Part shown: positions 3,584 to 56,332 of the stretch, piece after piece
Layout: every line of letters starts with the position of its first letter
Position numbering within the stretch: position 1 is the stretch's first letter
Notes under the pieces: model-generated
Told to the model about the DNA's origin: nothing
The model's input: the letters and a program-made list of their open reading frames with translations, nothing else
Databases searched by the model: none
DNA from: an uncultured Candidatus Marinamargulisbacteria bacterium
GTDB taxonomy: Bacteria; Margulisbacteria; Riflemargulisbacteria; GWF2-35-9; DYQY01
NCBI GenBank assembly: GCA_964429235.1
Contig: CAYSAQ010000002.1
Coordinates: 230,952 to 294,951 of the forward strand
Direction of reading: 5' to 3'
Length of the DNA: 64,000 nt
Program-made: the position numbers and the translations under genes

Positions 3584-3763
3584 ATGCCATATGTAAGTAT
3601 AAGAGTTGCGGGAGAGCTTTCTAAGGAACAAAAGCAAAAGATAGCAGAGGATGTTTCTGGATCTTTAGAAAAAAATGCGGGTAAGCCTAAGGATACGGTT
3701 CTAATCTTTTTTGATGAAGTTGCGAGAGAAAATATTGCTAAAGGCGATAAGCTTTTATCGTGA
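3584..3763 (+). CDS. 4-oxalocrotonate tautomerase family protein (59 aa; absent from the supplied ORF track)
   Basis: ATG at 3584 preceded by aggaggga. Translation MPYVSIRVAGELSKEQKQKIAEDVSGSLEKNAGKPKDTVLIFFDEVARENIAKGDKLLS has the Pro-1 tautomerase signature, and its TGA stop overlaps the polA GTG start. Confidence 0.75.
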   Translation: MPYVSIRVAGELSKEQKQKIAEDVSGSLEKNAGKPKDTVLIFFDEVARENIAKGDKLLS

Positions 3764-6438
3764 AAAAAGCATTATTAATAGATGGCCATAGTTTAGCCTA
3801 TAGGGCTTTTTTTGCTGTTGCTGGTTTGACCACAAAAGACGGTCAGCCTACAAATGCCTTGCTTGGTTTTGCCAACATGGTGTTACAAATTATTAAGAAT
3901 CGTAATCCTGATCAGGTTTATGTTGCCTTTGATTTACCAAAACCAACATTCAGACATAAGTTATATCCAGAGTATAAAGGACACAGAGAAACACCTCCAG
4001 ATGAGTTTATTTCACAGATTCCACTAATTAAAGAGTTTGTTGAAGCGATTGGGCTTCCGATTGTTCAGCAAGAGGGCTTTGAGGCAGATGATGTTATAGG
4101 AGCGTTAGCCAATAAACTTAGCTCAGAAGGTGTACAGCCTTTCATTGTTACAGGAGATAAAGATGCCTTTCAGTTAGTAACGGAAGATATTAGAGTTCTT
4201 TTAACAAAGAAGGGGATAACAGAAATAGAAGAGTACGGCCCAGCGGAAGTTTATGACCGGTATGGACTATTAGTAGACCAGATAATAGACATGAAAGCTT
4301 TAATGGGTGATAGCTCGGATAATATTCCAGGAGTAAAAGGGGTAGGAGAGAAAACCGCAATAAAACTGTTGATAGATTATGGAACACTAGAAGACCTTTA
4401 TGAGAATGTTGGTGAAATAAAAGGTAAATTACAAGAGAAGTTAATAAACGATAAAGATAACGCATTTCTTAGTAAGAAATTGGCAACGATTGATACGACA
4501 GTAGCGTTGCAGGTGTCCCTACAGGATATAGATATTGATTTGAAATTATTAGAAGATTTTTTAAAGAAATATCAGCTATATAGCTTGATTAAGCGTTTTA
4601 TAGGAGCTGAGCAAGCAGTAGAAGAGAAACAGGTTGAAACTGCAATCATTGATAACAAAGAGTCCTTAGCTGAGGCAATAGCATATATTAAAAAGCAAAA
4701 AGAAATATCCGTGTATTGTGAGTATGATGATCGTACAGGAGACATTATTGGTCTAAGCATAGCTTTTGGAGCAGGTAATGCCTATGTTATTCCTCTTAGC
4801 TTTCTTTCAGGCAATTTGAGTTCAGGTGAACAATCTGCATTTGGTCCTATGTTCGCTACAGAAGAAGATTCAGCTTTTGAAGATTTAAAAGAAATTTTTA
4901 ACCAGAATAATCATAAAGTTTTACATGATGCAAAAAGATTGAAGCATACCTTAGATAATGAGGGTATTGAGCTTAATGGTACTTACGATGATGTTATGCT
5001 TATGGACTATTTGCTCACTCCTGATAGGAATAATAGAGAAATAGATAAAATGATGAATGTTTATTTGCACGAGAATGTATTAAGTAAAAAAGAGGTTCTT
5101 AGCAAGAGTAAAAAATATCATTTTTGTGAAATTGCTGCAGATAAAGCATTGGACTATATGGCAAAAAGGGCTGAGGCTATTCTTAGATTAAAGCCACGAC
5201 TTTTGTCTTTATTGGAGACAGAGGGTGTTCTTTTTATATATGAAGAAATGGATCTCCCCCTTATTAATGTCTTATTTAAAATGGAGCAACAAGGAATTCT
5301 AATAGACAAAAAATATTTAAAAGATATGTCAAAGCATTTGCACACAGAGCTAACTAGCATCGAAGATAATATATATATACTGGCGGGTGAAGAGTTTAAT
5401 ATAAATTCTACTAAACAACTACAAGTTATTTTGTATGAGAAATTAGGATTGCCAGCACTTAAGAAGACAAAGACAGGGTATAGTACAAACGTTGATGTGC
5501 TTGAGGATTTAGCAGGCAAATATGAGATAGCTAAAAGTCTTATTGAATATAGAAAGCTTGCTAAATTATTAAATACCTATGTAGATGCTTTGCCAAAGCT
5601 AGCAGATAAAGATGGAAGAATACATACGACATTTAATCCAACAGTTGCAGCTACTGGAAGGCTAAGTAGCAGTGAGCCTAATTTACAAAATATTCCTATT
5701 AGAGGCGATATTGGAAGTAAGATTCGCGGAGCTTTTGTTGCGAAGCCAGGGTATACACTGATAGTTGCAGACTACTCTCAGATTGAGCTGAGAATATTGG
5801 CGCATATTAGTAAGGATGAAAAGCTAAGCGAAGCTTTTTTAACGGGTAAAGATGTTCATAGTGCGACAGCAGCTTCTGTTTTTGATGTCCCGCTGGAAGA
5901 GGTTACTACCGAGTTAAGAAGAAAAGCCAAGGCTATTAACTTTGGATTAGCGTACGGCATGGGTGCTTTTAACATGGCCAATTCTTTAGGAGTTGAAATG
6001 CATGAAGCTCAACATCATATTGATGTGTATTTTAATAACTTTCCTAACATCCAGAAGTTTATGGAAGAAGCGCCAAAAAAAGTAATGGAAAATGGCTATA
6101 TTGAGACATTGTATGGCCGAAAAAGGTATTTTAAGGATTTTGCTACTGCAGGAAAAAGAGAGCAGAATTCTCAGGCAAGGATGATTATAAATTCTCCAAT
6201 ACAGGGACTTGCTGCAGATATAGTCAAGTTGGCAATGATTGAGCTGGATAAAGAAATTGCTGCATATGATGCCAATGTTTTGTTACAGGTACATGATGAA
6301 CTTGTAGTGGAAGTAAAGAATGAACAAGCAGATGAGCTTTGTAAGCTAGTTGTGGATATTATGGAAAATGCTTATAAAATAGATGTGCCATTATTAGTTA
6401 ATGCATCAGTTGGTGATAATTGGTTAGAAGCAAAGTAA
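3760..6438 (+). CDS. polA: DNA polymerase I
   Basis: 892 aa with an N-terminal 5'-3' exonuclease region (LLIDGHSLAYRAFFA), a central domain and C-terminal polymerase motifs (DYSQIELRILAHIS; QVHDELVVEV). GTG start. Confidence 0.95.
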   Translation: MKKALLIDGHSLAYRAFFAVAGLTTKDGQPTNALLGFANMVLQIIKNRNPDQVYVAFDLPKPTFRHKLYPEYKGHRETPPDEFISQIPLIKEFVEAIGLPIVQQEGFEADDVIGALANKLSSEGVQPFIVTGDKDAFQLVTEDIRVLLTKKGITEIEEYGPAEVYDRYGLLVDQIIDMKALMGDSSDNIPGVKGVGEKTAIKLLIDYGTLEDLYENVGEIKGKLQEKLINDKDNAFLSKKLATIDTTVALQVSLQDIDIDLKLLEDFLKKYQLYSLIKRFIGAEQAVEEKQVETAIIDNKESLAEAIAYIKKQKEISVYCEYDDRTGDIIGLSIAFGAGNAYVIPLSFLSGNLSSGEQSAFGPMFATEEDSAFEDLKEIFNQNNHKVLHDAKRLKHTLDNEGIELNGTYDDVMLMDYLLTPDRNNREIDKMMNVYLHENVLSKKEVLSKSKKYHFCEIAADKALDYMAKRAEAILRLKPRLLSLLETEGVLFIYEEMDLPLINVLFKMEQQGILIDKKYLKDMSKHLHTELTSIEDNIYILAGEEFNINSTKQLQVILYEKLGLPALKKTKTGYSTNVDVLEDLAGKYEIAKSLIEYRKLAKLLNTYVDALPKLADKDGRIHTTFNPTVAATGRLSSSEPNLQNIPIRGDIGSKIRGAFVAKPGYTLIVADYSQIELRILAHISKDEKLSEAFLTGKDVHSATAASVFDVPLEEVTTELRRKAKAINFGLAYGMGAFNMANSLGVEMHEAQHHIDVYFNNFPNIQKFMEEAPKKVMENGYIETLYGRKRYFKDFATAGKREQNSQARMIINSPIQGLAADIVKLAMIELDKEIAAYDANVLLQVHDELVVEVKNEQADELCKLVVDIMENAYKIDVPLLVNASVGDNWLEAK

Positions 6439-15678: not shown

Positions 15679-15742
15679 CCCCCTTCGCCGAAAGGCTCTT
15701 ACCCCTTTGATAAAGGGGGCGCTGCTCCCTCGTCGAGGGAGC
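15679..15742. repeat. GC-rich palindromic element (two or three adjacent hairpins) in a divergent intergenic region
   Basis: Hairpin ccccttt-gat-aaagggg at 15702-15718 and gctccctcg-t-cgagggagc at 15724-15742, with a small gcc-gaaa-ggc stem-loop upstream. Sharply GC-rich against AT-rich flanks. Confidence 0.5.
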
Positions 15743-15950
15743 CTTTTATTAATTTATTTGATTATGAAAAGAAGGTATATTCCAAAGTGATAGGGGGAGT
15801 TAAGAAAGTGCCTAGTTGGTATATAATTAAATTATGAATTTTGAAGAAATAATAGAAGAACTAAAAAGTTTTGAGGATTCATAACTGCTATACTAGACAA
15901 AGAAGATTCAGTAAAATGGATAGCAAGAGATGCGAGGAGAGAGTTAGTAG

Positions 15951-17852: not shown

Positions 17853-18659
17853 TTAACTTCCCCAAGTATAAGCAAATGAGTAGATTAGCTCATCAGAGAT
17901 AGAATAAGGAACCTCTACCGCGTATTTTACTGATCCAAGATAAGATTGAGTTCCTATCATAAAAGGTAAATCAAATCCTAATGCATATCCGTTTTCGTTG
18001 GCACCAACATTAAGCATTGTTGTATCATTTATTAGCAGTGAAAGTCCTGAACTATATTTTATTTTTTCTCCAGCAAGTCTTATGAAACTGATTTTGTTAG
18101 ACCACATTACTTTATTCCAAGGGATAAAGTTTAGACCAAAACCAATTGTTGGAGGGAAATCATTATCCAAGATATTATCGTTATCCTTAAAGAAATGTTC
18201 CAAGGTAACTCCCGAGTAGACTTTGTTGCGAAGGTCCATATAGCTTACGCCTAATAGTGTTGACCAGCCATTGCTTTTGACTCCAGCGGCATCTAATGCA
18301 ATTGTTTGATAAGTTATGCCCCAGGAGAAAGATTTGTTTATTTTTGACCCATAACCGAAGAGCGCTATTGTTGCATTTTCACTGATAGATTTTTCTTCAA
18401 GTTTCATTTCTCCAGCACCAAACCCGTTATAAATAACATAACTAAGGGTTTGTTTGGCTGTTCTTTGTTTTGTTGTGTCGATGTTTTGGTTGCTAATAGC
18501 AAACCGTGTTTGAGGCAAAAAGGCAGGATTAACAACAAAGGCTTCGTGGTTCATGATAAGCGCAATATTAGATTTTGCTACACTTAAATCAGATACACTT
18601 GTCAAATTGTAAGCAAAACTAATGTAAGTTAAAAATAGAAATAGAACTTTGATTTTCAT
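17853..18659 (-). CDS. hypothetical outer-membrane (beta-barrel-like) protein
   Basis: 268 aa with an N-terminal signal peptide and alternating hydrophobic and aromatic-rich segments. Coupled to the upstream lipoprotein gene. Confidence 0.5.
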   Translation of the reverse strand: MKIKVLFLFLTYISFAYNLTSVSDLSVAKSNIALIMNHEAFVVNPAFLPQTRFAISNQNIDTTKQRTAKQTLSYVIYNGFGAGEMKLEEKSISENATIALFGYGSKINKSFSWGITYQTIALDAAGVKSNGWSTLLGVSYMDLRNKVYSGVTLEHFFKDNDNILDNDFPPTIGFGLNFIPWNKVMWSNKISFIRLAGEKIKYSSGLSLLINDTTMLNVGANENGYALGFDLPFMIGTQSYLGSVKYAVEVPYSISDELIYSFAYTWGS

Positions 18660-31317: not shown

Positions 31318-31426
31318 CTATACAAGTTTCCTTCTATAAATCACGTTATCTAATATGGGTATAACTATGTTTAAAATCAGAGTATTTTGGGCACAATAAC
31401 TATATAAGATAAGGAGGTTGGATAAG

Positions 31427-32512
31427 ATGGCAGTAGGTATGAATACAAACACACTAACTTCGGCGAAGTTTAGAAAACCATCAGAAACCACTATCGAAAG
31501 TCTAGCGACGGTAAAGCCCGGGCCAGCAAATAAGGGGCTTGGAGCAACTAGTGCAGGAGCCGTATTCCTGCCAGTGCCTGGATTAAAAATTGCACAAACA
31601 ACTCCTCAAGAATTGCAAAAGCATGAAACAGTTACAAAAATAAATGCAGGAATTGAAGGTCTATGGGATGGCTCTAACGAAGTTGGGCCAAATGTAAAAG
31701 CATTTATAGCATCTAAAGTTGATGGATTTAAAGGAGCGGCTGGTCGTGAAGAGTGGCAGAGTTGGGGCAAAGAGTTTGTAGAAGCGATGGCTGCAGATTT
31801 AAAAATGTCTCCTGCTGAAGTTGAGGCGCTATCTCCTGCCGATATCTCTAAGTTGGTTGAAACGTTACAATCACAAATTAGCGCAACATGGCAGGTCAGT
31901 TTGTTTGGTCCTGATACATTGATGCATTTAGCTAAAAGGTTAGATAGTACACATGACGGTTTCTTAAATAATCTTAAAACAGACTTAAGCTCAGAAGCTG
32001 CAAAGACTTTTGATAGCAAATGGACAAAGATAACAAATTTTTATAAAGAGATAACAAAATTTGATAATCATTCAAAAGAGGATTTAGTAAAGTTTAATAA
32101 AGCAACTGTTCCATCTACAGATAAAGGTAGTCGATTAGCAAGCGTAGCTAGGCAAGTAGCCTCAGAAATGCCTGGTATTGGAAGATGTAAAAAGGGAGTT
32201 CGATTAGCTTTTGAAAAAGCAGGATTTGGAACAATTGCTGGATTGTCAGCGTATATGGCAGCCCCACAGTTAGCAAAAAGAGGTGGTTTTTCAGAGGCGT
32301 CTGTTAGTAGAAACCAATTGAAACAACTTCCAGCTGGAGCTGTTATTGTTTGGAATAAAGGAAGAATAGGCGGGGGCCGTTTGTCCTCTGCAGGGTTAGA
32401 GCACGGTCATATAGAAATATCATTAGGCAATGGTGGCGAGTTTGCATGCGATTATCAAGGAAGTGTTAATCCACAAAGAGCTCAAAGCTATAGAGTATTT
32501 ATTCCTAAATAA
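31427..32512 (+). CDS. hypothetical protein with C-terminal papain-fold (CHAP/NlpC-P60-like) amidase or peptidase domain (tentative)
   Basis: ATG at 31427 with aaggagg 9 nt upstream, preferred over the track's TTG at 31418. C-terminal GRCKKGVRLAFEKAGFG...AGAVIVWNKG...EHGHIEISLGNGG matches a Cys...His papain-like arrangement; N-terminus is S/T-rich with no signal peptide. Confidence 0.4.
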   Translation: MAVGMNTNTLTSAKFRKPSETTIESLATVKPGPANKGLGATSAGAVFLPVPGLKIAQTTPQELQKHETVTKINAGIEGLWDGSNEVGPNVKAFIASKVDGFKGAAGREEWQSWGKEFVEAMAADLKMSPAEVEALSPADISKLVETLQSQISATWQVSLFGPDTLMHLAKRLDSTHDGFLNNLKTDLSSEAAKTFDSKWTKITNFYKEITKFDNHSKEDLVKFNKATVPSTDKGSRLASVARQVASEMPGIGRCKKGVRLAFEKAGFGTIAGLSAYMAAPQLAKRGGFSEASVSRNQLKQLPAGAVIVWNKGRIGGGRLSSAGLEHGHIEISLGNGGEFACDYQGSVNPQRAQSYRVFIPK

Positions 32513-33025
32513 CTATCCGCTATAGGTCGGAGCAGCTTTAGGAGATTTCATCTTTTTCACATTATGATAATAATCGTAAGTAAGCGTTGTCGCATCAGAT
32601 AAAGTCTTACAGCTTTGTATTTCTCCAATAAACATAGTATGAGTCCCTATATCCATCTGATTCACTACCTTGGCATCCATTACAGAAACTGTGTTTTCTA
32701 AAACAACAGGAGAGCCGGTACAAGCTATTTCATGTTTTGTGTCTGCAAATTTATCAATATCTCTACCACTCTTGAATCCAAATTTACCAATAAAAGGAAC
32801 TGGGGTTTCTTGATCTAATACTGAGATTCCAAAAGAACCAGTTTTAGATATATATTCGTGTGTTAGGTTTTCTTTGTTGATGCAGGTAGCTATCCTTGGT
32901 GGTTCAGCTGTTACCTGGAACACAACAGTTGCTATTTGTCCGTTTATTTTGCCTTCGCCATTTGCGGCTCCTACAATATAGACGCCGTATCCTAATTTAA
33001 ATAGAGCACTATGATCCATTTTCAT
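32513..33025 (-). CDS. flavin reductase family protein
   Basis: 170 aa with flavin-reductase-like core (YGVYIVGAANGEGKINGQIATVVFQVT...). Confidence 0.75.
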   Translation of the reverse strand: MKMDHSALFKLGYGVYIVGAANGEGKINGQIATVVFQVTAEPPRIATCINKENLTHEYISKTGSFGISVLDQETPVPFIGKFGFKSGRDIDKFADTKHEIACTGSPVVLENTVSVMDAKVVNQMDIGTHTMFIGEIQSCKTLSDATTLTYDYYHNVKKMKSPKAAPTYSG

Positions 33026-33540
33026 TATATTGTAACTCCAGCAGGAGGATTGAAGATTCTTGAAGCTAGTTCTTTGTCTATCATGAACAGGCCTCCACTA
33101 TCTTTGCCGATAAGTTTTAGGCTTTGTATAATACCGTCTGCAGTAGACTCTTCTTCTACTTGTTCATCAATAAACCATTGAAAAAAGCTTGTGCTTGCAT
33201 GGTCCTTAAGCTCAATAGCTAAGTTCATAAGGTTATTGATTTTTTCTGTTACTATTCTTTCATGGGCCAAAGCGTCTTCAAAAGCAGCAAGAGGAGATTT
33301 CCATTTGTTTTGTGGACCGTTGATTCCCGTTAAAGTTATTTTTCCACCACGTTCTAGAACATAGTCATAGAATTTTTTAGCATGAGACTGTTCTTCCATT
33401 ACTTGTACTTTCATCCAATTGGCAAAACCGTTTAGGTTTAAACTTGAGAAGTATGCTGCCATTGCAAGGTAAAGATAAGCTGAAAATAGCTCGAAGTTTA
33501 TTTGGTCATTAATGGCTTTTTCTATTTTTTTATCTAACAT
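33025..33540 (-). CDS. ferritin (non-heme)
   Basis: Ferritin-like di-iron helices (NFELFSAYLYLAMAAYF...VMEEQSHAKKFYDYVLERGG). I prefer the second Met (MLDKK, at 33540) because a ggagg SD precedes it on the coding strand; the track start is 33561. Confidence 0.85.
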   Translation of the reverse strand: MLDKKIEKAINDQINFELFSAYLYLAMAAYFSSLNLNGFANWMKVQVMEEQSHAKKFYDYVLERGGKITLTGINGPQNKWKSPLAAFEDALAHERIVTEKINNLMNLAIELKDHASTSFFQWFIDEQVEEESTADGIIQSLKLIGKDSGGLFMIDKELASRIFNPPAGVTI

Positions 33541-33567
33541 TTTTTGTTCCTCCAGCCTCACCCCCGG

Positions 33568-33589
33568 CCCCTCTCCTTCAGGAGAGGGG
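33568..33589. repeat. GC-rich perfect hairpin (9-bp stem) in a divergent intergenic region
   Basis: cccctctcc-ttca-ggagagggg lies immediately upstream of the ferritin start and is not a terminator by position. Confidence 0.5.
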
Positions 33590-33653
33590 GGAGAGAAAGT
33601 TCTTTTTCTTTTATTGTAGTGATTTAAATTTGAGATTCAAGTAAATTCTTTTA

Positions 33654-33695
33654 GCTCCCTCACTGAGGGGGATGTCGCAAAGCGACAGGGGGAGC
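33654..33695. repeat. compound GC-rich palindromic element
   Basis: gctccct...ccctca-c-tgaggg (33657-33669) and tgtcgc-aaa-gcgaca (33672-33686) are enclosed by gctccc/gggagc arms, about 45 nt upstream of the mfd-like start. Confidence 0.45.
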
Positions 33696-33739
33696 TATTA
33701 TTTGCCATTCACCCACATAACATATACAATAATTCAGCT

Positions 33740-35815
33740 ATGAAACTTCAGGTAGGCGTAAATGTAGATGTAGATTTAATAATAGAAGAGCTAGAGAATT
33801 ATAAATATTCTAGAGTTACCTTGGCTCTTAGTCCTGGTGATTATGCTATTAGAGGAAGCATTATAGATGTATTTCCTTCTAATCAAAATGTTCCTATTAG
33901 AATCGAGTTGTTTGATACAGAGATAGAAGATATCAGAACATTTGAGCCAACATCACAGCGATCCCTGACAAAGCTTAAAAATATTGAGATCAACCCTTTT
34001 GATAAGAATGTAAAGCATCATGATCATATTATCCCGCATGAAATATTATTTGATTTGAATCAAGGAGATAAGGTTGTTCATATCAACCATGGTATCGGTA
34101 TTTATCAAGGGCTAAAGAGGCTAAAGTTTGGTAAATATGAAGGCGAATATGCGGTAGTTGAGTATCAAGAAAATGACAAAATATATATCCCAATAGAACA
34201 GCTTACAAGAATTTATAAATTCTCTGGCGGGGTAGACCCTAAGGTTAATTCTTTAAGAGATAAACAATGGGAGAAGACTCAAAAAAAAGTTAAGAAGGTT
34301 GTAAAAGATGTAGCCAAAGACCTTTTTTATTTATATAAGAATCGTAAGCTTAATGAAGGGTTTTCTTTTGCTGAGGATAGCGAGATGTCTATACAGCTTG
34401 CAGAATCTTTTCCATTTAAGGAAACCAGAGACCAACAAAAGGCAATTGATGATGTTAGAAAAGATATGGAGTCTGCCAAAGTAATGGATAGGCTTATTTG
34501 TGGAGATGTTGGGTTTGGTAAAACAGAAGTAGCAATACGAGCAGCACTTAAAGCAGTAGAGAGTAGAAAGCAGGTCGTATTATTAGCGCCAACAACTATT
34601 CTTTCGAAGCAACATTATGAAGTGTTTAATAAGCGGCTAGGCATTCTCGGAGTTAATGTGGAGTTTCTTAATAGGTTTAAAACACGCAAGGAACAGAGAG
34701 ACACCTTGCAGAGGCTTCAGCAGGGATTAACAGACGTAATCGTGGGGACACATCGTTTGTTGCAAAAAGACGTAGAATTTGCAGATTTAGGGCTAGTGGT
34801 TATTGATGAAGAACAAAGATTTGGAGTGATGGCAAAGGAGCGATTAAAAAAGTATAGAAGCCATGTTGATGTGTTAACTCTTTCAGCGACACCGTTACCA
34901 AGGACGTTATATATGTCTATTTCTGGAATCAGAGATATTAGTGTTATTAATACCCCTCCGTTAGAGAGATTGCCGATTATTACAGAGGAACATGTATTTG
35001 ATATAGATTTTATTAAGAAGAAGATAAATAAAGAGACGCGTAGAAATGGACAGGTGTTTATCTTGCACAATCGTATTCACGACATTATTCACTTAAGGAA
35101 TCAGATACACAATGTGATGCCAGGTTTGGATATTAGAATAGGGCATGGGCAGATGAAGCCAAGAGAGCTTGAGCAGTTGATGGTTGAGTTTTATGAGAAT
35201 AAATTCCCCGTGCTTATAGCTACAACAATTATTGAAAATGGAGTAGATATCCCTAACGCTCATACTATTTTTGTAAATAACGCAGAGCATTTCGGGTTAG
35301 CACAATTGCATCAGTTGAGAGGGCGTGTTGGACGAAACCAGGTGCAGTCTTATTGTTATTTGATGTATAAAAATGCTGATAAATTTACTGATGAGGTTAA
35401 GACCAGGTTTGAGGCACTTATGGAATTCTCAACATTGGGTTCAGGGTATGATATAGCACTTAGAGATTTAGAGTTAAGAGGTATTGGGAATATTTTGGGC
35501 ACAGAGCAAAGCGGTTATATGGAAGCTGTTGGGTTTGAGTTCTATATGCATTTGCTAAATAATGCGATTGCTAAAGAAAAGGGAGTTCAGCAAAAAGAAC
35601 GACCATATATAACTATTTCATCCAAGATGCAGGCATATATTTCAGAAGATTATATTCCAGATATGAATATTCGATTGGCATTATATAAATCTATTGCGGA
35701 GCTAAGTAGTCAGAAACAGGTAGAAAGTTTGAAGCAAGAGTGTGTGGATAGGTTTGGTCCATTGCCGCATAACCTTGTTATTATGTTACAGGTTATTAGC
35801 GAAGAAGTAGTGTGA
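33740..35815 (+). CDS. mfd: transcription-repair coupling factor (Mfd)-like helicase, short form lacking the N-terminal UvrB-homology module
   Basis: 691 aa. Has the Mfd RNAP-interaction segment (GDKVVHINHGIGIYQG...KIYIPIEQL), SF2 motifs (GDVGFGKTEVA; VVIDEEQRFG; HQLRGRVGR) and the start of the C-terminal TRCF domain (LALYKSIA...DRFGPLP), then stops. Canonical Mfd is about 1150 aa. Confidence 0.8.
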   Translation: MKLQVGVNVDVDLIIEELENYKYSRVTLALSPGDYAIRGSIIDVFPSNQNVPIRIELFDTEIEDIRTFEPTSQRSLTKLKNIEINPFDKNVKHHDHIIPHEILFDLNQGDKVVHINHGIGIYQGLKRLKFGKYEGEYAVVEYQENDKIYIPIEQLTRIYKFSGGVDPKVNSLRDKQWEKTQKKVKKVVKDVAKDLFYLYKNRKLNEGFSFAEDSEMSIQLAESFPFKETRDQQKAIDDVRKDMESAKVMDRLICGDVGFGKTEVAIRAALKAVESRKQVVLLAPTTILSKQHYEVFNKRLGILGVNVEFLNRFKTRKEQRDTLQRLQQGLTDVIVGTHRLLQKDVEFADLGLVVIDEEQRFGVMAKERLKKYRSHVDVLTLSATPLPRTLYMSISGIRDISVINTPPLERLPIITEEHVFDIDFIKKKINKETRRNGQVFILHNRIHDIIHLRNQIHNVMPGLDIRIGHGQMKPRELEQLMVEFYENKFPVLIATTIIENGVDIPNAHTIFVNNAEHFGLAQLHQLRGRVGRNQVQSYCYLMYKNADKFTDEVKTRFEALMEFSTLGSGYDIALRDLELRGIGNILGTEQSGYMEAVGFEFYMHLLNNAIAKEKGVQQKERPYITISSKMQAYISEDYIPDMNIRLALYKSIAELSSQKQVESLKQECVDRFGPLPHNLVIMLQVISEEVV

Positions 35816-35827
35816 TTATTCTACTGC

Positions 35828-36553
35828 TCAGGTTCTTGGCTTAAGGTCATTTTTTAATGCCATAAAAGCTTTTAGTGTATCTTTATCAAAAGCAGATAAG
35901 CATAGTATGCTAGAGAGCATGAATTCGCCTGCTACAAAAAATTTGTTTGTATTCCATAACATCATGGCAGGAGTAGATAAAAATAGATGTAAAAGCACAA
36001 ACAATCTAATGCCATAATTTATATTTTTTAGTATGTCGGAAGAATGCAGCCGTTGTACCTTTATTTTTGGTCGTAGTTCCTCAGGTACATTTTTGATTTT
36101 AGATTCATTGCGAATCAATATTTCTTTAATGTCAGATGACGGAACATTCTCTATTCCTACTTGGTATACTGCATGAGGTTGTAAAAACCATTTTTTCCAG
36201 ATACCCGGTTTGGTCAATTGTTTTGATTCTGCTTCAATTGTTATATAGACTTCAGGTTTTTCAGAATGGCCCATGAAAAAGTGCTCTAGTTTTGAGATCT
36301 TTTCTGGATGTGTATTTAGTCCCCAAAGTCTAAGCCATGATGGAGATTCTTTTAGTAATGTTCTGTCTAGATAAGTGATTGATCGAGACTTTACTTGGTC
36401 AGTTTCCGTAATTGCTCCTACTAACTTGTCTGCCAGTACAGTGCTTGAGCGAGATGGAATAATGCCACCACTTTCTGCGATTTTGTGTAGTCGCTCAAAG
36501 CTTGTTCCAAGATATATATTTGTAGTAGTATTCGCAATAATTTTTGTACGCAT
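35828..36553 (-). CDS. hypothetical protein
   Basis: 241-aa ORF with a hydrophobic C-terminal segment and no recognisable motif. Confidence 0.45.
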   Translation of the reverse strand: MRTKIIANTTTNIYLGTSFERLHKIAESGGIIPSRSSTVLADKLVGAITETDQVKSRSITYLDRTLLKESPSWLRLWGLNTHPEKISKLEHFFMGHSEKPEVYITIEAESKQLTKPGIWKKWFLQPHAVYQVGIENVPSSDIKEILIRNESKIKNVPEELRPKIKVQRLHSSDILKNINYGIRLFVLLHLFLSTPAMMLWNTNKFFVAGEFMLSSILCLSAFDKDTLKAFMALKNDLKPRT

Positions 36554-40106: not shown

Positions 40107-43100
40107 TTAGATAGTTTTTACTTCACATCCAGTACACATCTTTTTAACGCGAGCATTAAAGTTATGCTGTATAACGTATAAAGATGGCACCAAAATTAGC
40201 GTAATAATAGTTGCAAAGACAAGCCCCCATGCAATCGTAAGAATCATTGGTACTATGAATGGGTTATCTCCACCAAATGCATATGCAGTAGGAAAGAGAC
40301 CAGCTGCAGTAGTAGTTGTAGTTAGCAGAATTGGGCGCAGTCTTCTTTTTGCTCCAGCTGCCATACTCTCGATACTGGTTCCGGCTTCATCTCTCTTAGT
40401 ATTCAAGAAACTTATCATTACTAATGAATCATTTACGACAATCCCTGTTAGTCCGATAAGTCCAATCATTGCTGGAAAACTCATTGGTAAATTGTGAGAC
40501 CAGAATGTGAAGATAACACCAGATAAACTGAAAGGAATAGCAGTCATTACTAAGAATGGCTGAGTGAAGCTGTTAAATAGAACAACAAGAATAAAGTAGA
40601 TACCAACTAATGCAAGGATAAGAGCAGAGAAGAGGCTAGACATAGCTTCCTGTGTATCTTGTTCTTCACCACCAAATTTTACTCTTAAGGCAGGATACTG
40701 TTTTGTTAGAGGTTTTAATTCTTTTTTGATTTTCTGGTTTGCTTCAAAAGAAGTTATTTTATCTAAATCAACATCAGCATAGATTGTAACTGATCTATCT
40801 GCATCAAAGTGATTTATTTTAAGCAAATCATCTTTCTCTGTAGCTTTAATAAGCTGGCCAAGAGGGATTAGTTTCCCTTGATGATTTTGAACAGTTAAAG
40901 ACTTAATTGTTCTTAATGTTGCTGCTTTTTTGTTGGAACCAGCAGTTCTTGCTTCTTTGTTTAAGATAACCCTATAGTCTATATCTTCTCCGTTCCATCG
41001 AAGTTCAGATACAATGATGCCCTGGAAAGCTGTTCTAATAGTATTTGCTACAGATATGGCATTTAGTCCTAGCCTAGACATAAGGTCATAATCTAGTGAT
41101 ATATCGATTCTTTTTTTGCCTTTCCCTTCATTGTCTACGATATCTTTTACTCCATCTAGATTTGCTAAATAGTTTTTAAGATGTTTGAAAACAGCATTAC
41201 GAGAATCATCATTGTCGCTAATAAGAGTAACCGTGATAGGCTCTCCAACTGGAGGTCCGTCAGATAGAATATCAGCATCAAGTTTGGTAAACCCTTTGAT
41301 GCCTTCAATATCTTTTTTGATGTCAGAAACTATGTCTGTTGCTGTTCTGTTTCTGCTTCCCATTGGAGTAAGGTGAATCATAATGTTCCCTACAAACCCT
41401 GCACTATAGTTTGTTCCAAAATCAGCCACTTGAGGGATATGTTCTCCTACAGTAGTTACAAATTTTGATACACCTTGTGTTAGATAAGGTTTTAATGCTT
41501 CTTCAATAGCTTCTGCTTTCTTAGATGTTTCCTCTAAGCTTGTTCCCTGTGCTGTTTCATAAGTAATGTATGCATACATACCATCATCAGAAGGGAATAG
41601 AACGAATTTCATACTTGTTATCATTACGATGATAGATAAGATGAATATTCCTATAAAAGTTAGTGTTGTTTTATATTTATTGTTTATCGTGAATATAATA
41701 AATTTTTCATATTTATTTTCAAAGCGACCAAACCATGTTTTCTTCTTTTTATCTTTCTTTTTAATTTTTGTATGAGAAATATGAGAAGGAAGAATGAATA
41801 AACATTCTGCCAAAGAGCTGAATAGTATCAGCGCAACAGCAATCGGCATTTGGAACATGAACTTCCCAAGGATACCTTTCATTGCCATCATAGGCAGGAA
41901 CACTACAACTGTTGTTAAAATAGTTGTTATAACCGGCCACAGTACTTCTTGAACTCCTTTTTGCGCTGCTTCCATTGGAGGAAGTCCCTCTTCTCGGTAG
42001 TGGTAGATGTTTTCGCCAACAATAATGGCATCATCGACAATCATTCCAAGTACAAGGATAAGCCCCATTAAGGAAATAAAGTTTATTGTTACTCCGAAAA
42101 CAGGGAAAAGACTCAGTGAAAGCATTATGGAGATTGGTATTCCAAGTGCAGTCCAAAATGCTATTTTAAAATTAAGCAGAACAAGCAAGGTTAGTAGAAC
42201 AAGCACAAACCCTAGCCAAGCATTGCTTATTACCATATCTAGTAAGCTTTTTACTTCAACCGAAAAGTCGACTACAAGTGATATTTGTACGTTTTCTGGA
42301 AGATCTTTTTGGAAGTCTTTTATGATTTGTCGCATTTCTACAGAAGCGTTCATTATGTCAGCGGCAGGTTTTTTCTTAACAGTCATGTTGATGGACTTAT
42401 TTCCATCAGTTTTAATTATAGTTCCTGCTTTTTCATATCCATCTACAATGCGAGCAACGTCAGAAACAATAACTCTGTTACCTTCAAATCCACTACGGAT
42501 TATTACTTTTCCCACATCTTTTGGGTTTTCAAATTCTGACATGATTAAGAATTTTTTCTCATTGAATTTGCTGTTAAGATCGCCAGCACTCATTCTAAAG
42601 TTATGCGCCTCGATAGCTGACATGACTTCACCAAGAGATATATAGTTCGCTAGTAGCTTCTTTTGGTCTACTTCTATTTTGATTTCTTTTTCTAGGTAGC
42701 CGAATTTATCTATGCCTCCTACAAGTTTGTTTTCTCTAAACTTGTTTTCTAGTGCTTTTGCATAAACTCTTTTTATTCCATAGTTAGCAGTCCCTGTAAT
42801 TGCAACTTCTACTAAGGGTAGTGTGTCGCTGTTAATTTCTATAATATATGGTTTTGCTTCAACTTCCTTTGGTAAATCTTGAACCCGGTCGACTGCTTTT
42901 TTGATATCTTCCTTGGTTTTTTTATAATCAACGGAATCATCAAGTTCTACAGCGACTATAGAAAAGCTCTCAAGTGATCTTGATGTAAGCCTTTTTATGC
43001 CATCAACACTTTTTAATTCGTCTTCTATTTTGTTTGTTACTTTTAGCTCGACATCTTCTGGAGAAGCGCCTGGGTAGACTGTAGAGATTCTTACAAACCC

Positions 43101-43229
43101 ATAATCTACAGAAGGGGCACCTTGTTTTTGTAGGTTTTTAATAGTTAGAGCGCCCATTAATAGTATAAATACTAATATAAGGTTTACTACCTTTGGTCGT
43201 TTGATAAAGAATTCAACGATTTTCATCAT
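40107..43229 (-). CDS. RND family efflux transporter permease (AcrB/AcrD/AcrF-like)
   Basis: 1040 aa, 12-TM architecture with two large periplasmic loops and typical RND N-terminus MMKIVEFFIKRPKVVNLILVFILLMG. Confidence 0.92.
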   Translation of the reverse strand: MMKIVEFFIKRPKVVNLILVFILLMGALTIKNLQKQGAPSVDYGFVRISTVYPGASPEDVELKVTNKIEDELKSVDGIKRLTSRSLESFSIVAVELDDSVDYKKTKEDIKKAVDRVQDLPKEVEAKPYIIEINSDTLPLVEVAITGTANYGIKRVYAKALENKFRENKLVGGIDKFGYLEKEIKIEVDQKKLLANYISLGEVMSAIEAHNFRMSAGDLNSKFNEKKFLIMSEFENPKDVGKVIIRSGFEGNRVIVSDVARIVDGYEKAGTIIKTDGNKSINMTVKKKPAADIMNASVEMRQIIKDFQKDLPENVQISLVVDFSVEVKSLLDMVISNAWLGFVLVLLTLLVLLNFKIAFWTALGIPISIMLSLSLFPVFGVTINFISLMGLILVLGMIVDDAIIVGENIYHYREEGLPPMEAAQKGVQEVLWPVITTILTTVVVFLPMMAMKGILGKFMFQMPIAVALILFSSLAECLFILPSHISHTKIKKKDKKKKTWFGRFENKYEKFIIFTINNKYKTTLTFIGIFILSIIVMITSMKFVLFPSDDGMYAYITYETAQGTSLEETSKKAEAIEEALKPYLTQGVSKFVTTVGEHIPQVADFGTNYSAGFVGNIMIHLTPMGSRNRTATDIVSDIKKDIEGIKGFTKLDADILSDGPPVGEPITVTLISDNDDSRNAVFKHLKNYLANLDGVKDIVDNEGKGKKRIDISLDYDLMSRLGLNAISVANTIRTAFQGIIVSELRWNGEDIDYRVILNKEARTAGSNKKAATLRTIKSLTVQNHQGKLIPLGQLIKATEKDDLLKINHFDADRSVTIYADVDLDKITSFEANQKIKKELKPLTKQYPALRVKFGGEEQDTQEAMSSLFSALILALVGIYFILVVLFNSFTQPFLVMTAIPFSLSGVIFTFWSHNLPMSFPAMIGLIGLTGIVVNDSLVMISFLNTKRDEAGTSIESMAAGAKRRLRPILLTTTTTAAGLFPTAYAFGGDNPFIVPMILTIAWGLVFATIITLILVPSLYVIQHNFNARVKKMCTGCEVKTI

Positions 43230-43231
43230 GG

Positions 43232-44692
43232 TTATTTGGCTCCTTTGTTGATGATGCTCATTAATAATGGTGTTTTTTGATATGTATCCAATAGTGATGA
43301 CAATTTGTTTATTAGTAGCATTTTGCTGCTTTTTAATGAAGCAAGATGCATCTTTGTTCCAAGGAGTTTGTCTTGGGCATTAATAAGAAAATACAAAGAG
43401 CTTCTTCCTTGCTTAAACTTCTTTTCTTCAAGTGCTGCAAATTCTATGGATAAGTTTACTAGTTCTTCGTTTTCTCTAATCATTTCATCTAAGGATTTAA
43501 TGTTTTGGTAAATAGTAAGAAGTCCATCAACACTATCTTTCATTATGTTTTCATTTTCTTTTTGTATTTTAGTTAATCTTTCTCTGGCTGCTTGTTCTTC
43601 TTTATTTGCAGCAGTGTTTTGCAAAGGAGTTTCAATTTGTAATCCGATACTAAATGGAGACTGAGATCCTAGATTATTAGCCATGTCCTCTTTTGTGTTT
43701 TCTGCAGAACCAACAGTTTTAGATAGGAACAGTTCGGCTGATGGTTTTGACTTGTTTTCTTGGTAAAGCAAAGTTTCTTTTTGCATTTTTTCTTGTATTT
43801 TTAATAGCTTTGCAAGTTTCGATCTTGTTTGAAGGTAATTAACAGAGTCTGCTACTCGGCCATCTACACCTAGTTGAATGTTGTTTTGAGGTAATAATGA
43901 TGTAGCGTCTTTGTTTTTTGCATCACCAATTCGGGAAGCAATGACCAATCCTTTATTTTCTAAGCCTTGCTTTGCCGATAGAAATTGAACCGATTTAGAT
44001 TTCAAGCTTTGGTTTGCTTGTACAAGTTCTAGTTTTTCAGAAGCACCTCTTTTGTATTGTTTTTCTACAAATGATACTTGGTCTTTAGCTTTATTATATT
44101 GTTCTTTGGTAATAACCATTGTGATATAAGCAAGCTGCCACGAAAGATAATCATCGATTAGTGTTTTATAAAAATTCTCTAAATCTTCAGAGTATTTAAT
44201 TGAAGCGAGTTCGTTGCCGAATTTAGCAAGTTGTAATGGATATCTGTCCATTTGTCCAAAAGCATTTTTCAGTAATGGTTGCACGATACTAATGTTTAAA
44301 TTCGCGTTGTAAATAGTAGAAGTTCCACCATTGAACCCAGGGATTGCTTTCATGCGAGTAGCTTCAGATGTTAGGTTTAGCCTCGTTCCTGTATCTGCTA
44401 ATAAAGAAGATAGCCCTGCTTGTGCTACAAGTATCTCGGTGTCACCACTGTACATTGTTGTTCCTTGCATGGAGTATCCTTTTGTATAAGAAGAAGACAT
44501 GAAAAGGTTCCAGTCATTTATGCCCTTTGCCATGTCGTTGGCATTCAGTTGTGCCATATATTCTGCTTGGCTTTTCTCAACCAATGGATGGTTATTTAGT
44601 GCTAGTTCTAGGTAATCATCTAAAAGCAGAACTTGTGGTGTTTGAGCAAAAGACACACACAGTATTCCTAGTAGTATTATTATTCTTTTCAT
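43232..44692 (-). CDS. TolC-family outer membrane efflux protein
   Basis: 486 aa with signal peptide, TolC-like start (LLLDDYLELALNNHPLVEKSQAEY) and coiled-coil-rich repeats. Immediately upstream of the RND gene on the same strand. Confidence 0.75.
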   Translation of the reverse strand: MKRIIILLGILCVSFAQTPQVLLLDDYLELALNNHPLVEKSQAEYMAQLNANDMAKGINDWNLFMSSSYTKGYSMQGTTMYSGDTEILVAQAGLSSLLADTGTRLNLTSEATRMKAIPGFNGGTSTIYNANLNISIVQPLLKNAFGQMDRYPLQLAKFGNELASIKYSEDLENFYKTLIDDYLSWQLAYITMVITKEQYNKAKDQVSFVEKQYKRGASEKLELVQANQSLKSKSVQFLSAKQGLENKGLVIASRIGDAKNKDATSLLPQNNIQLGVDGRVADSVNYLQTRSKLAKLLKIQEKMQKETLLYQENKSKPSAELFLSKTVGSAENTKEDMANNLGSQSPFSIGLQIETPLQNTAANKEEQAARERLTKIQKENENIMKDSVDGLLTIYQNIKSLDEMIRENEELVNLSIEFAALEEKKFKQGRSSLYFLINAQDKLLGTKMHLASLKSSKMLLINKLSSLLDTYQKTPLLMSIINKGAK

Positions 44693-56233: not shown

Positions 56234-56247
56234 CCCTTCCGTCTGCT

Positions 56248-56268
56248 AGCGCAGCCACCTTCCCTTCG
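56248..56268. repeat. GC-rich hairpin (9-bp stem) after rnhB; terminator-like but with no T-tract
   Basis: ccttccctt-cgt-aagggaagg, with a smaller ctgc-tagc-gcag hairpin at 56233-56244. Same pyrimidine-arm/purine-arm style as the other intergenic hairpins. Confidence 0.5.
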
Positions 56269-56332
56269 TAAGGGAAGGAGAATTCAGAGTGGTAACTTCA
56301 CAAAGATGTAATAATTTTGTTATAGTTATTAA

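Follow-up and report, generated by a model that had tools for sequence, protein, structure and literature searches.

A short Mfd of Candidatus Margulisbacteria that keeps a complete D2 domain, the RNA polymerase-interacting domain, the motor and half of D7

A 691-residue Mfd is encoded at 33740-35815

We analysed a stretch of 64,000 nucleotides (64 kb, hereafter the window) from an uncultured Candidatus Marinamargulisbacteria bacterium (contig CAYSAQ010000002.1), in which an open reading frame (ORF) on the plus strand at 33740..35815, stop codon included, starts with ATG and encodes a 691-residue homologue of Mfd, the transcription-repair coupling factor. A preliminary description of this DNA had recognised an Mfd homologue of that length, and the curated hidden Markov model TIGR00580.2 (mfd equivalog) agrees, scoring 872.6 bits against a cut-off of 800. 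The enterobacterial-type model NF007966 reached 667.7 against its cut-off of 1329, as expected for a divergent and shorter protein. The best RecG model gave 393.8 bits against a cut-off of 718 and covered the motor only (residues 199-596), and the top solved-structure matches of the protein are Mfd proteins. By the curated cut-off, and by its RNA polymerase (RNAP)-interacting domain, motor, D2 domain and D7 motif, the product belongs to the Mfd family.

The protein is about 460 residues shorter than Escherichia coli Mfd (1148 residues). The 178 bp upstream of the gene (33562-33739) are unable to lengthen the ORF, because two in-frame TAA codons (33617-33622) block the upstream frame and the codons between them and the gene include no start. 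Downstream, a convergent 241-residue ORF (35828-36553, minus strand) ends 12 bp past the mfd stop, which rules out a C-terminal extension. The domains, named after Deaconescu et al. as applied in PMC7864632, were placed with Pfam, with phmmer against solved structures and with a multiple alignment that includes E. coli Mfd taken from NC_000913:

33740..35815, plus strand: compact Mfd gene, complete (ORF; TIGR00580; Pfam; identical protein P0001; orthologues of 691-717 residues)
33740..33997, plus strand: D2, the UvrA-binding UvrB interaction domain, residues 1-86, complete (Pfam UvrB_inter PF17757 at residues 2-86, profile 2-87 of 91, E 7.5e-24; E. coli 133-213; match to 4dfc_A; predicted local distance difference test, pLDDT, 78-91)
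33998..34054, plus strand: 19-residue linker, residues 87-105, in place of D1b, D3 and the D3-D4 linker of E. coli 214-473 (alignment; the least conserved segment)
34055..34234, plus strand: D4, the RNAP-interacting domain, residues 106-165 (Pfam CarD_TRCF_RID PF02559 at residues 106-161, full profile, E 1.7e-16; aligned to E. coli 474-547)
34235..34939, plus strand: relay helix (residues 176-204) and translocase lobe TD1/D5 (Pfam DEAD at 229-386; Walker A GFGKT 258-262; DEEQ 356-359)
34940..35599, plus strand: translocase lobe TD2/D6, TRG motif and hook helices, residues 401-620 (Pfam Helicase_C at 426-533; QLRGRVGR; helices 569-614 in the model)
35600..35812, plus strand: D6-D7 linker and proximal D7 with helices 642-653, 658-672 and 677-690 (Pfam TRCF PF03461 at residues 629-686, profile 2-59 of 95 only; E667, D670, R671)

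Three separate blocks of the E. coli protein are missing

The order along the protein is thus D2, the linker, the RNAP-interacting domain, the relay helix, D5 and D6, the TRG motif with the hook helices, and the proximal part of D7. With phmmer, residues 6-86 matched E. coli Mfd 133-213 and residues 103-683 matched E. coli 474-1061 continuously, and the multiple alignment agrees with this map. The features expected of an Mfd are present: the RNAP-interacting domain, a RecG-like superfamily 2 (SF2) translocase with motifs I-VI, the TRG motif, the relay and hook helices, and D2. The statement of the preliminary description that the RNAP-interacting domain and the full translocase core are kept is borne out by Pfam, TIGR00580 and the E. 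coli alignment, and its proposal that the protein can displace RNAP is plausible from these intact parts.

Its view of the two ends has to be redrawn. It had read the N-terminal segment as no more than the end of a UvrB-like domain, whereas the PF17757 profile shows that the whole of D2 is there, and the peptide it quoted, IRIELFDTEIEDIRTFEPTSQRS, lies in the D2 core. It had also described the loss of roughly 350 residues as one N-terminal block; the alignment shows three. The first is D1a (E. coli 1-126), at the N-terminus. The second, D1b with D3 and the following linker (E. coli 214-473, about 260 residues), is internal and in frame and is replaced by 19 residues. The third takes away D7's distal half, about 80 residues (E. 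coli about 1069-1148), with the alignment of the window protein stopping at about E. coli 1068. The protein therefore does not hold the complete UvrB homology module (D1a-D2-D1b): the module was rightly called missing as regards D1a and D1b, not as regards D2, which is the one part left. D7, the C-terminal TRCF domain, is likewise incomplete. Most of it had been thought gone, yet the retained profile positions, modelled as three helices between 642 and 690, hold a conserved E..DRFG motif, the one with which D7 contacts D2 in E. coli. Alignment for domain boundaries, which the preliminary description had proposed as a check, thus replaced its boundary map and showed that D1a, D1b/D3 and the distal part of D7 are absent.

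The short form recurs across Candidatus Margulisbacteria

Similarly short orthologues in related genomes, another check proposed, were indeed found. A first protein search returned the identical protein P0001, on contigs of up to 410 kb, and 18 clusters of 691-717 residues with 44-77% identity and 97-100% coverage; the next proteins in the same list had 1000-1200 residues and covered 82-94% of the query. Three more short forms (P0143, P0233 and P0249) came from a profile search over 1.84 billion representatives, the other matches in its top 150 being proteins of 987-1250 residues that aligned in two or three stretches, and the last profile search added P0276 and P0277. In total there are about 23 clusters of 691-717 residues with the same three boundaries, down to 41% identity. 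A query with the N-terminal 170 residues returned 24 candidates, all of them fragments. All named short forms come from Candidatus Margulisbacteria, and the related genome loci from Candidatus Marinamargulisbacteria and Candidatus Riflemargulisbacteria.

Short and full-length Mfds form two length classes without intermediates at each of the three boundaries:

Residues before R38: 37-51 in short forms; median 179 in full-length Mfds
Residues between D2 and the RNAP-interacting domain: 19-24 in short forms; 166-313 in full-length Mfds
Residues after G673: 18-32 in short forms; median 100 in full-length Mfds

When the core regions of 125 sequences, 21 of them short forms, were joined in a neighbour-joining tree, the short forms made up one bipartition with a bootstrap of 69/100, and the core Margulisbacteria group had 100/100. 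With moderate support, one ancestral remodelling event would fit this tree.

Comparison with the orthologue at the related locus L010 gave proportions of nonsynonymous and synonymous differences (pN/pS) of 0.146/0.764 for the whole gene, while D2 alone had 0.221/0.823 and the retained part of D7 had 0.211/0.78; pN and pS are given instead of dN/dS, synonymous sites being saturated (pS 0.73-1.0). Because pN is far below pS throughout, every domain is under purifying selection. Taken together, the sequences indicate that the short form is intact and conserved in the lineage, and that it is probably the normal Mfd of Candidatus Margulisbacteria.

The short mfd genes have differing neighbourhoods, with tight flanks of unrelated genes such as a SpoU methylase, ruvB, or genes for a SurA-like protein, MazG and DivIC. 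At L009:137-3326 a divergent short-form mfd is followed by ruvB after 7 bp. At L007:6001-10376 the order is mfd, SurA-like peptidyl-prolyl isomerase, MazG and DivIC, which we take to resemble the mfd region of Firmicutes, and a 695-residue ORF without a Pfam match lies 8 bp upstream of mfd.

The missing modules are absent around the gene

With the missing E. coli Mfd segments as tblastn queries, nothing was found in the 64-kb window or in the short-form loci. In a wider search, some 100 full-length Mfds supplied about 300 segments (D1a, D1b-D3 and distal D7), which were run against the window and the 3-10 kb flanks of ten other short-form loci, and again none was found, with the sole exception of a stray match (E 0.004) far from mfd. 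Positive controls behaved as expected, all five full-length loci being matched, with E values down to 1e-25. Around the gene, no remnant of a lost Mfd module was seen in any frame.

These searches bear on two ways in which the short gene might mislead. That a normal mfd was truncated by decay, or by an assembly or frameshift artefact, would account for the length deficit against the E. coli reference, and decay had been suggested in the preliminary description. We regard this as practically out of the question. The identical gene is present on at least nine contigs, with two places shown from independent ENA and JGI/Logan assemblies, so that misassembly throughout is implausible given independent assemblers and samples. 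About 23 clusters share its boundaries, to 41-44% identity, and no domain has a pN anywhere near its pS; of the three deletions, one lies inside the protein and keeps the frame, the flanks hold no module remnants, and the catalytic motifs are all intact.

Alternatively, D1a, D1b, D3 or the distal part of D7 might be made as separate polypeptides elsewhere and assemble with the 691-residue protein. The search reached 64 kb of this genome and the flanks named above, which leaves some room for such a split gene, and unannotated ORFs do lie beside some short mfd genes (695 residues in L007, 202 residues in L021). We nevertheless consider it very unlikely, given that the 300-segment search recognised all five full-length controls and, apart from the stray match, nothing in the window or the ten loci, and that three independent excisions at precise domain boundaries, found clade-wide, fit domain loss better than fission.

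The UvrA surface of D2 and the D2-contacting face of D7 are conserved

In E. coli Mfd, mutagenesis identified the D2 residues R165, R181 and F185 as the UvrA interaction surface (Manelyte 2010, PMC3025350). The D7 residues E1045, D1048 and R1049 touch D2 and mask this surface, and transcription-coupled repair cannot do without the UvrB homology module but can do without D7 (PMC3025350). We counted the conservation of these and other residues over 21 short forms, with 104 full-length Mfds as the comparison set:

E. coli R165 (R38 of the window protein): kept in 20 of 21 short forms
E. coli R181 (R54): kept in 21 of 21
E. coli F185 (F58): kept in 18 of 21
E. coli E1045 (E667): kept in 18 of 21
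E. coli D1048 (D670): kept in 21 of 21
E. coli R1049 (R671): kept in 21 of 21

Both sets of residues are about as conserved in the short forms as in the full-length proteins, where the F185 position is F in 86 of 104. The preliminary description had supposed that UvrA might not be recruited in the canonical way; this rested on the mistaken domain assignment and is hard to maintain with a complete D2 and a conserved triad.

The motor is conserved at the residue level, too. Invariant across the short forms are GFGKT (Walker A), DEEQ, SATP, QLRGRVGR (motif VI), the TRG residues and the R580/G581/Q590/G592 block. W177, which corresponds to E. coli W550, a regulatory node of the hook and relay helix (PMC3488230), is invariant as well, and at L128, the position aligned with E. 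coli L499, every short form has L or M.

For residues 5-84 the top solved-structure match was 4dfc_A, a 93-residue Mfd chain of D2 only, followed by UvrB chains of domain 2 only (3fpn_B). We take 4dfc_A and 3fpn_B to be isolated domains solved in complex with the UvrA interaction domain, in which case D2 would by itself suffice for contact with UvrA. In UvrB and Mfd, D2 is an insertion into D1, and the matches to D2-only structures of both proteins are consistent with D2 being a self-contained unit.

An AlphaFold2 model resembles closed forms of Mfd

The AlphaFold2 model, built from a 72-sequence alignment and assessed by superposition statistics, had a mean pLDDT of 82.5 and a predicted TM-score (pTM) of 0.65. 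Block means in D2 were 78-91, and linker residues 91-103 fell below 50. The D7 remnant was modelled as three helices (642-653, 658-672 and 677-690) and the relay helix spanned 176-204. The best Foldseek matches were Mfd proteins, with query-normalised TM-scores of 0.80-0.83 to apo Mfd of Mycobacterium smegmatis and M. tuberculosis, and 0.78 to the L1 state of E. coli Mfd. Against apo E. coli Mfd the score was 0.67-0.68, and against the L1.5 and L2 states 0.55-0.56.

A streamlined Mfd that probably still recruits UvrA through D2

Our preferred reading, which we hold to be probable, is that the gene encodes an intact, functional and streamlined Mfd, the normal form in Candidatus Margulisbacteria, whose D2 would recruit UvrA. 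One ancestral lineage would have lost the two parts of D1 (D1a and D1b), a D3 that is lineage-specific, and D7's distal subdomain while keeping D2, which would be tethered straight to the RNAP-interacting domain by the flexible linker of about 19 residues. The RNAP-interacting domain would dock on the beta subunit of a stalled RNAP, and the SF2 motor would move on the upstream duplex DNA and push the polymerase off. UvrA, which these genomes presumably encode, would then be recruited by D2 through the E. coli-type R/R/F surface. In the free protein, the E..DRFG helix of D7 probably masks that surface, forming a minimal D2:D7 clamp. In E. coli, the D1-D3 module must detach and swing on a 25-residue linker before D2 is exposed (PMC7864632). 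Such a swing would be impossible in the same form here, because D1 and D3 are absent and D2 sits beside the RNAP-interacting domain.

Several points weigh against this reading. The F185 position is D in one divergent short form, and the R165 position is K in another. The D2 arginines are buried in the D2:D7 interface of E. coli Mfd (PMC3025350), so their conservation could reflect the clamp and not UvrA binding. In E. coli, D2 sits on a D1a/D1b scaffold and the closed state also involves contacts of D1 to D3; without this scaffold and D3 the clamp may be weak or absent, by analogy with Mfd of Thermus thermophilus, and the D2:D7 contact of the window protein is predicted from superposition statistics only. 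No uvrA, uvrB or uvrC gene was found among the ORFs of at least 500 residues within the 64-kb window, and the monophyly of all short forms is backed by a moderate bootstrap only.

Some of these points would suit an RNAP-displacing translocase uncoupled from nucleotide excision repair, in which D2 is kept as the autoinhibition partner of D7 or for some other contact. Beyond the lack of uvr genes among the long ORFs of the window, D1a, D1b and D3 are missing and F185, an exposed residue, is replaced in 3 of the 21 short forms. We think this unlikely nonetheless, for D2 is complete, its triad is as conserved as in the 104 full-length Mfds, and D2-only structures of Mfd and UvrB (4dfc_A, 3fpn_B) exist. 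Moreover, what E. coli needs is the UvrB homology module and not D7 (PMC3025350), and the lineage has kept the part that matters for coupling. A different view takes the protein as a constitutively derepressed motor that, with D1, D3 and distal D7 gone, lacks an effective clamp and acts as an always-on RNAP release or termination factor, any recruitment of UvrA being unregulated. It draws on T. thermophilus Mfd with its open clamp, its RNAP-free translocation and a UvrB homology module cut down strongly, to residues 1-191 (PMC13453472), and on the limited but widespread effect of Mfd on transcript ends in a cyanobacterium without Rho (PMC12642595). Margulisbacteria are placed within the Cyanobacteriota/Melainabacteria group, and the idea would matter if they, like Cyanobacteria, are without Rho. 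The evidence makes it quite improbable in our eyes: on either face, the D2:D7 interface shows little or no variation, the node of hook and relay helix is intact with its invariant W177, and the model lies nearest to closed apo or L1 conformations.

If the preferred reading of a streamlined, UvrA-recruiting Mfd is taken further, the protein might be a coupling factor reduced in nature to a minimum and still linking transcription with repair or, more boldly, an always-active general RNAP release factor in a lineage with Rho-less Cyanobacteria among its relatives; we offer this as a speculative possibility that is doubtful at present. Were the minimal coupling factor real, D1a, D1b, D3 and the distal part of D7 would be dispensable, and D2 on its 19-residue tether would load onto the stalled RNAP and hand over to UvrA by a simpler path than the multi-step D1-D3 relocation of E. 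coli.

Comparison with known Mfd proteins and RecG

E. coli Mfd (PDB 2eyq, 6x26) shares with the window protein the RNAP-interacting domain, the relay helix, the translocase lobes and the TRG and hook helices, at about 44% identity over 474-1063, together with the D2 triad and the E1045/D1048/R1049 motif of D7. The window protein differs in lacking residues 1-126, 214-473 (19 residues instead) and the last 80 or so of D7, so that D2 is N-terminal. Mfd of T. thermophilus (978 residues; PDB 6m6a, 13jq) is also naturally short, with a UvrB homology module of 191 residues, and aligned to window residues 106-678. It is reported to have an open clamp and not to be autoinhibited (PMC13453472), and it differs in keeping D1a, D1b, D3 and a full D7 (87 residues past the aligned end); the short Mfd of Margulisbacteria is another 290 residues or so shorter. 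T. thermophilus Mfd is therefore the nearest natural precedent, and truncations of the E. coli protein are the nearest artificial ones. Mfd without its UvrB homology module (delta-BHM), Mfd without D7 (delta-D7) and the D2-only 4dfc show that the modules are separable, with D7 dispensable for strand-specific repair and the D2 surface required for the interaction with UvrA (PMC3025350). None of these laboratory constructs, however, joins a retained D2 with removal of D1 and D3 and half of D7, and the natural layout has evolved under selection. RecG (PDB 1gm5) is an SF2 translocase of similar size (about 690 residues), and its N-terminal region is a wedge domain. In the window protein D2 and the RNAP-interacting domain lie at the place of that region, and a TRCF domain is added.

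Abstracts present Mfd as a highly conserved multi-domain machine, and its regulation has been described in terms of large D1-D3 movements and the D2:D7 clamp (PMC3025350, PMC7864632). In the full-text literature, with few subscription journals covered, we found no account of a natural Mfd that consists solely of D2, the RNAP-interacting domain, the motor and one half of D7, and no work on either Mfd or excision repair in Margulisbacteria. The window protein is thus an architectural variant of a known family that is apparently undescribed, on a literature negative that is not conclusive. Because Pfam models cover the retained domains only, the short variant escapes domain-architecture searches, and because it is invisible to them its database label is plain 'transcription-repair coupling factor'. 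A candidate phylum that manages with these parts would define, by a natural example, the smallest set of domains that functions. It would also make testable the need for the D1/D3 scaffold and the distal part of D7 in coupling, in autoinhibition and in the topological wrapping linked to processivity. At 79 kDa, the short Mfd would in addition be a smaller subject for structural and inhibitor work.

Upstream elements and neighbouring genes

The 5' neighbour of mfd is a divergent ferritin gene. The region between the two genes had been described as 178 bp of GC-rich palindromes without coding capacity for the missing residues, which the hairpins and the in-frame stops bear out:

33025..33561, minus strand: ferritin gene (ORF listing)
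33562..33739, no strand: ferritin-mfd divergent intergenic region (GC-rich hairpins 33568-33589 and 33654-33694; no coding room for the lost Mfd residues)
33702..33730, plus strand: promoter-like site TTGCCA-17-TACAAT (consensus scan, 10 of 12 matches; 9 nt separate its second hexamer from the mfd ATG)

The scanned region has as many promoter-like sites as expected from shuffled sequence, and TTGCCA-17-TACAAT, the best of them, is no more than a match to the consensus. A Shine-Dalgarno sequence is not apparent upstream of the mfd ATG, and the mRNA, judged by its sequence, may lack a leader or carry only a very short one. The 15 codons 5' of the ATG (33695-33739, LLFAIHPHNIYNNSA) were considered as a remnant of D1a, since tblastn aligned them to E. 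coli 113-127 with 4 of 15 residues identical and an E. coli-like spacing from P to G. We dropped this reading and judged the likeness to be chance: the segment has no start codon, the in-frame stops at 33617-33622 precede it, and the L010 orthologue has an in-frame TAA five codons upstream and no similarity.

Short hairpins rich in GC, with 5-9 bp in the stem and 3-4 nt in the loop, cluster between genes of this 35% GC sequence at 15680-15745, 33556-33600, 33652-33697 and 56234-56278. The motif GCTCCCTCNNNGAGGG occurs at 15724 and 33654 (chance expectation 0.02), and whole hairpin units are not repeated within the window. In a Marinamargulisbacteria relative, an analogous cluster of five or six different GC-rich hairpins lies just 5' of its own short mfd (L010:2800-2990). 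An Rfam scan of the upstream hairpins gave chance-level matches only, and their identification as a known RNA was dropped for want of a credible score. The hairpins may represent a lineage-wide class of structured intergenic elements similar to repetitive extragenic palindromic (REP) elements. The ferritin ORF starts with GTG at 33561 in the ORF listing (178 residues), and gene callers place the start seven codons later, at an ATG (MLDKK...) near 33540 (171 residues). If the later ATG is used, the perfect hairpin CCCCTCTCC-TTCA-GGAGAGGGG at 33568-33589 lies in the 5' region of the ferritin transcript, where from its sequence it is possibly a regulatory structure.

Near mfd lie the convergent 241-residue ORF, for which the precomputed hits give no Pfam match, and a 364-residue ORF (31418-32512, plus strand). 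The latter had no Pfam match on direct scan, nor did ORFs of 522 residues (18659-20227, minus strand) and 540 residues (26133-27755, minus strand). Elsewhere in the window, a DNA polymerase I of 892 residues with all PolA domains is encoded at 3760-6438 (plus strand), and an AcrB-type efflux pump with its outer-membrane factor at 40107-44692 (minus strand).

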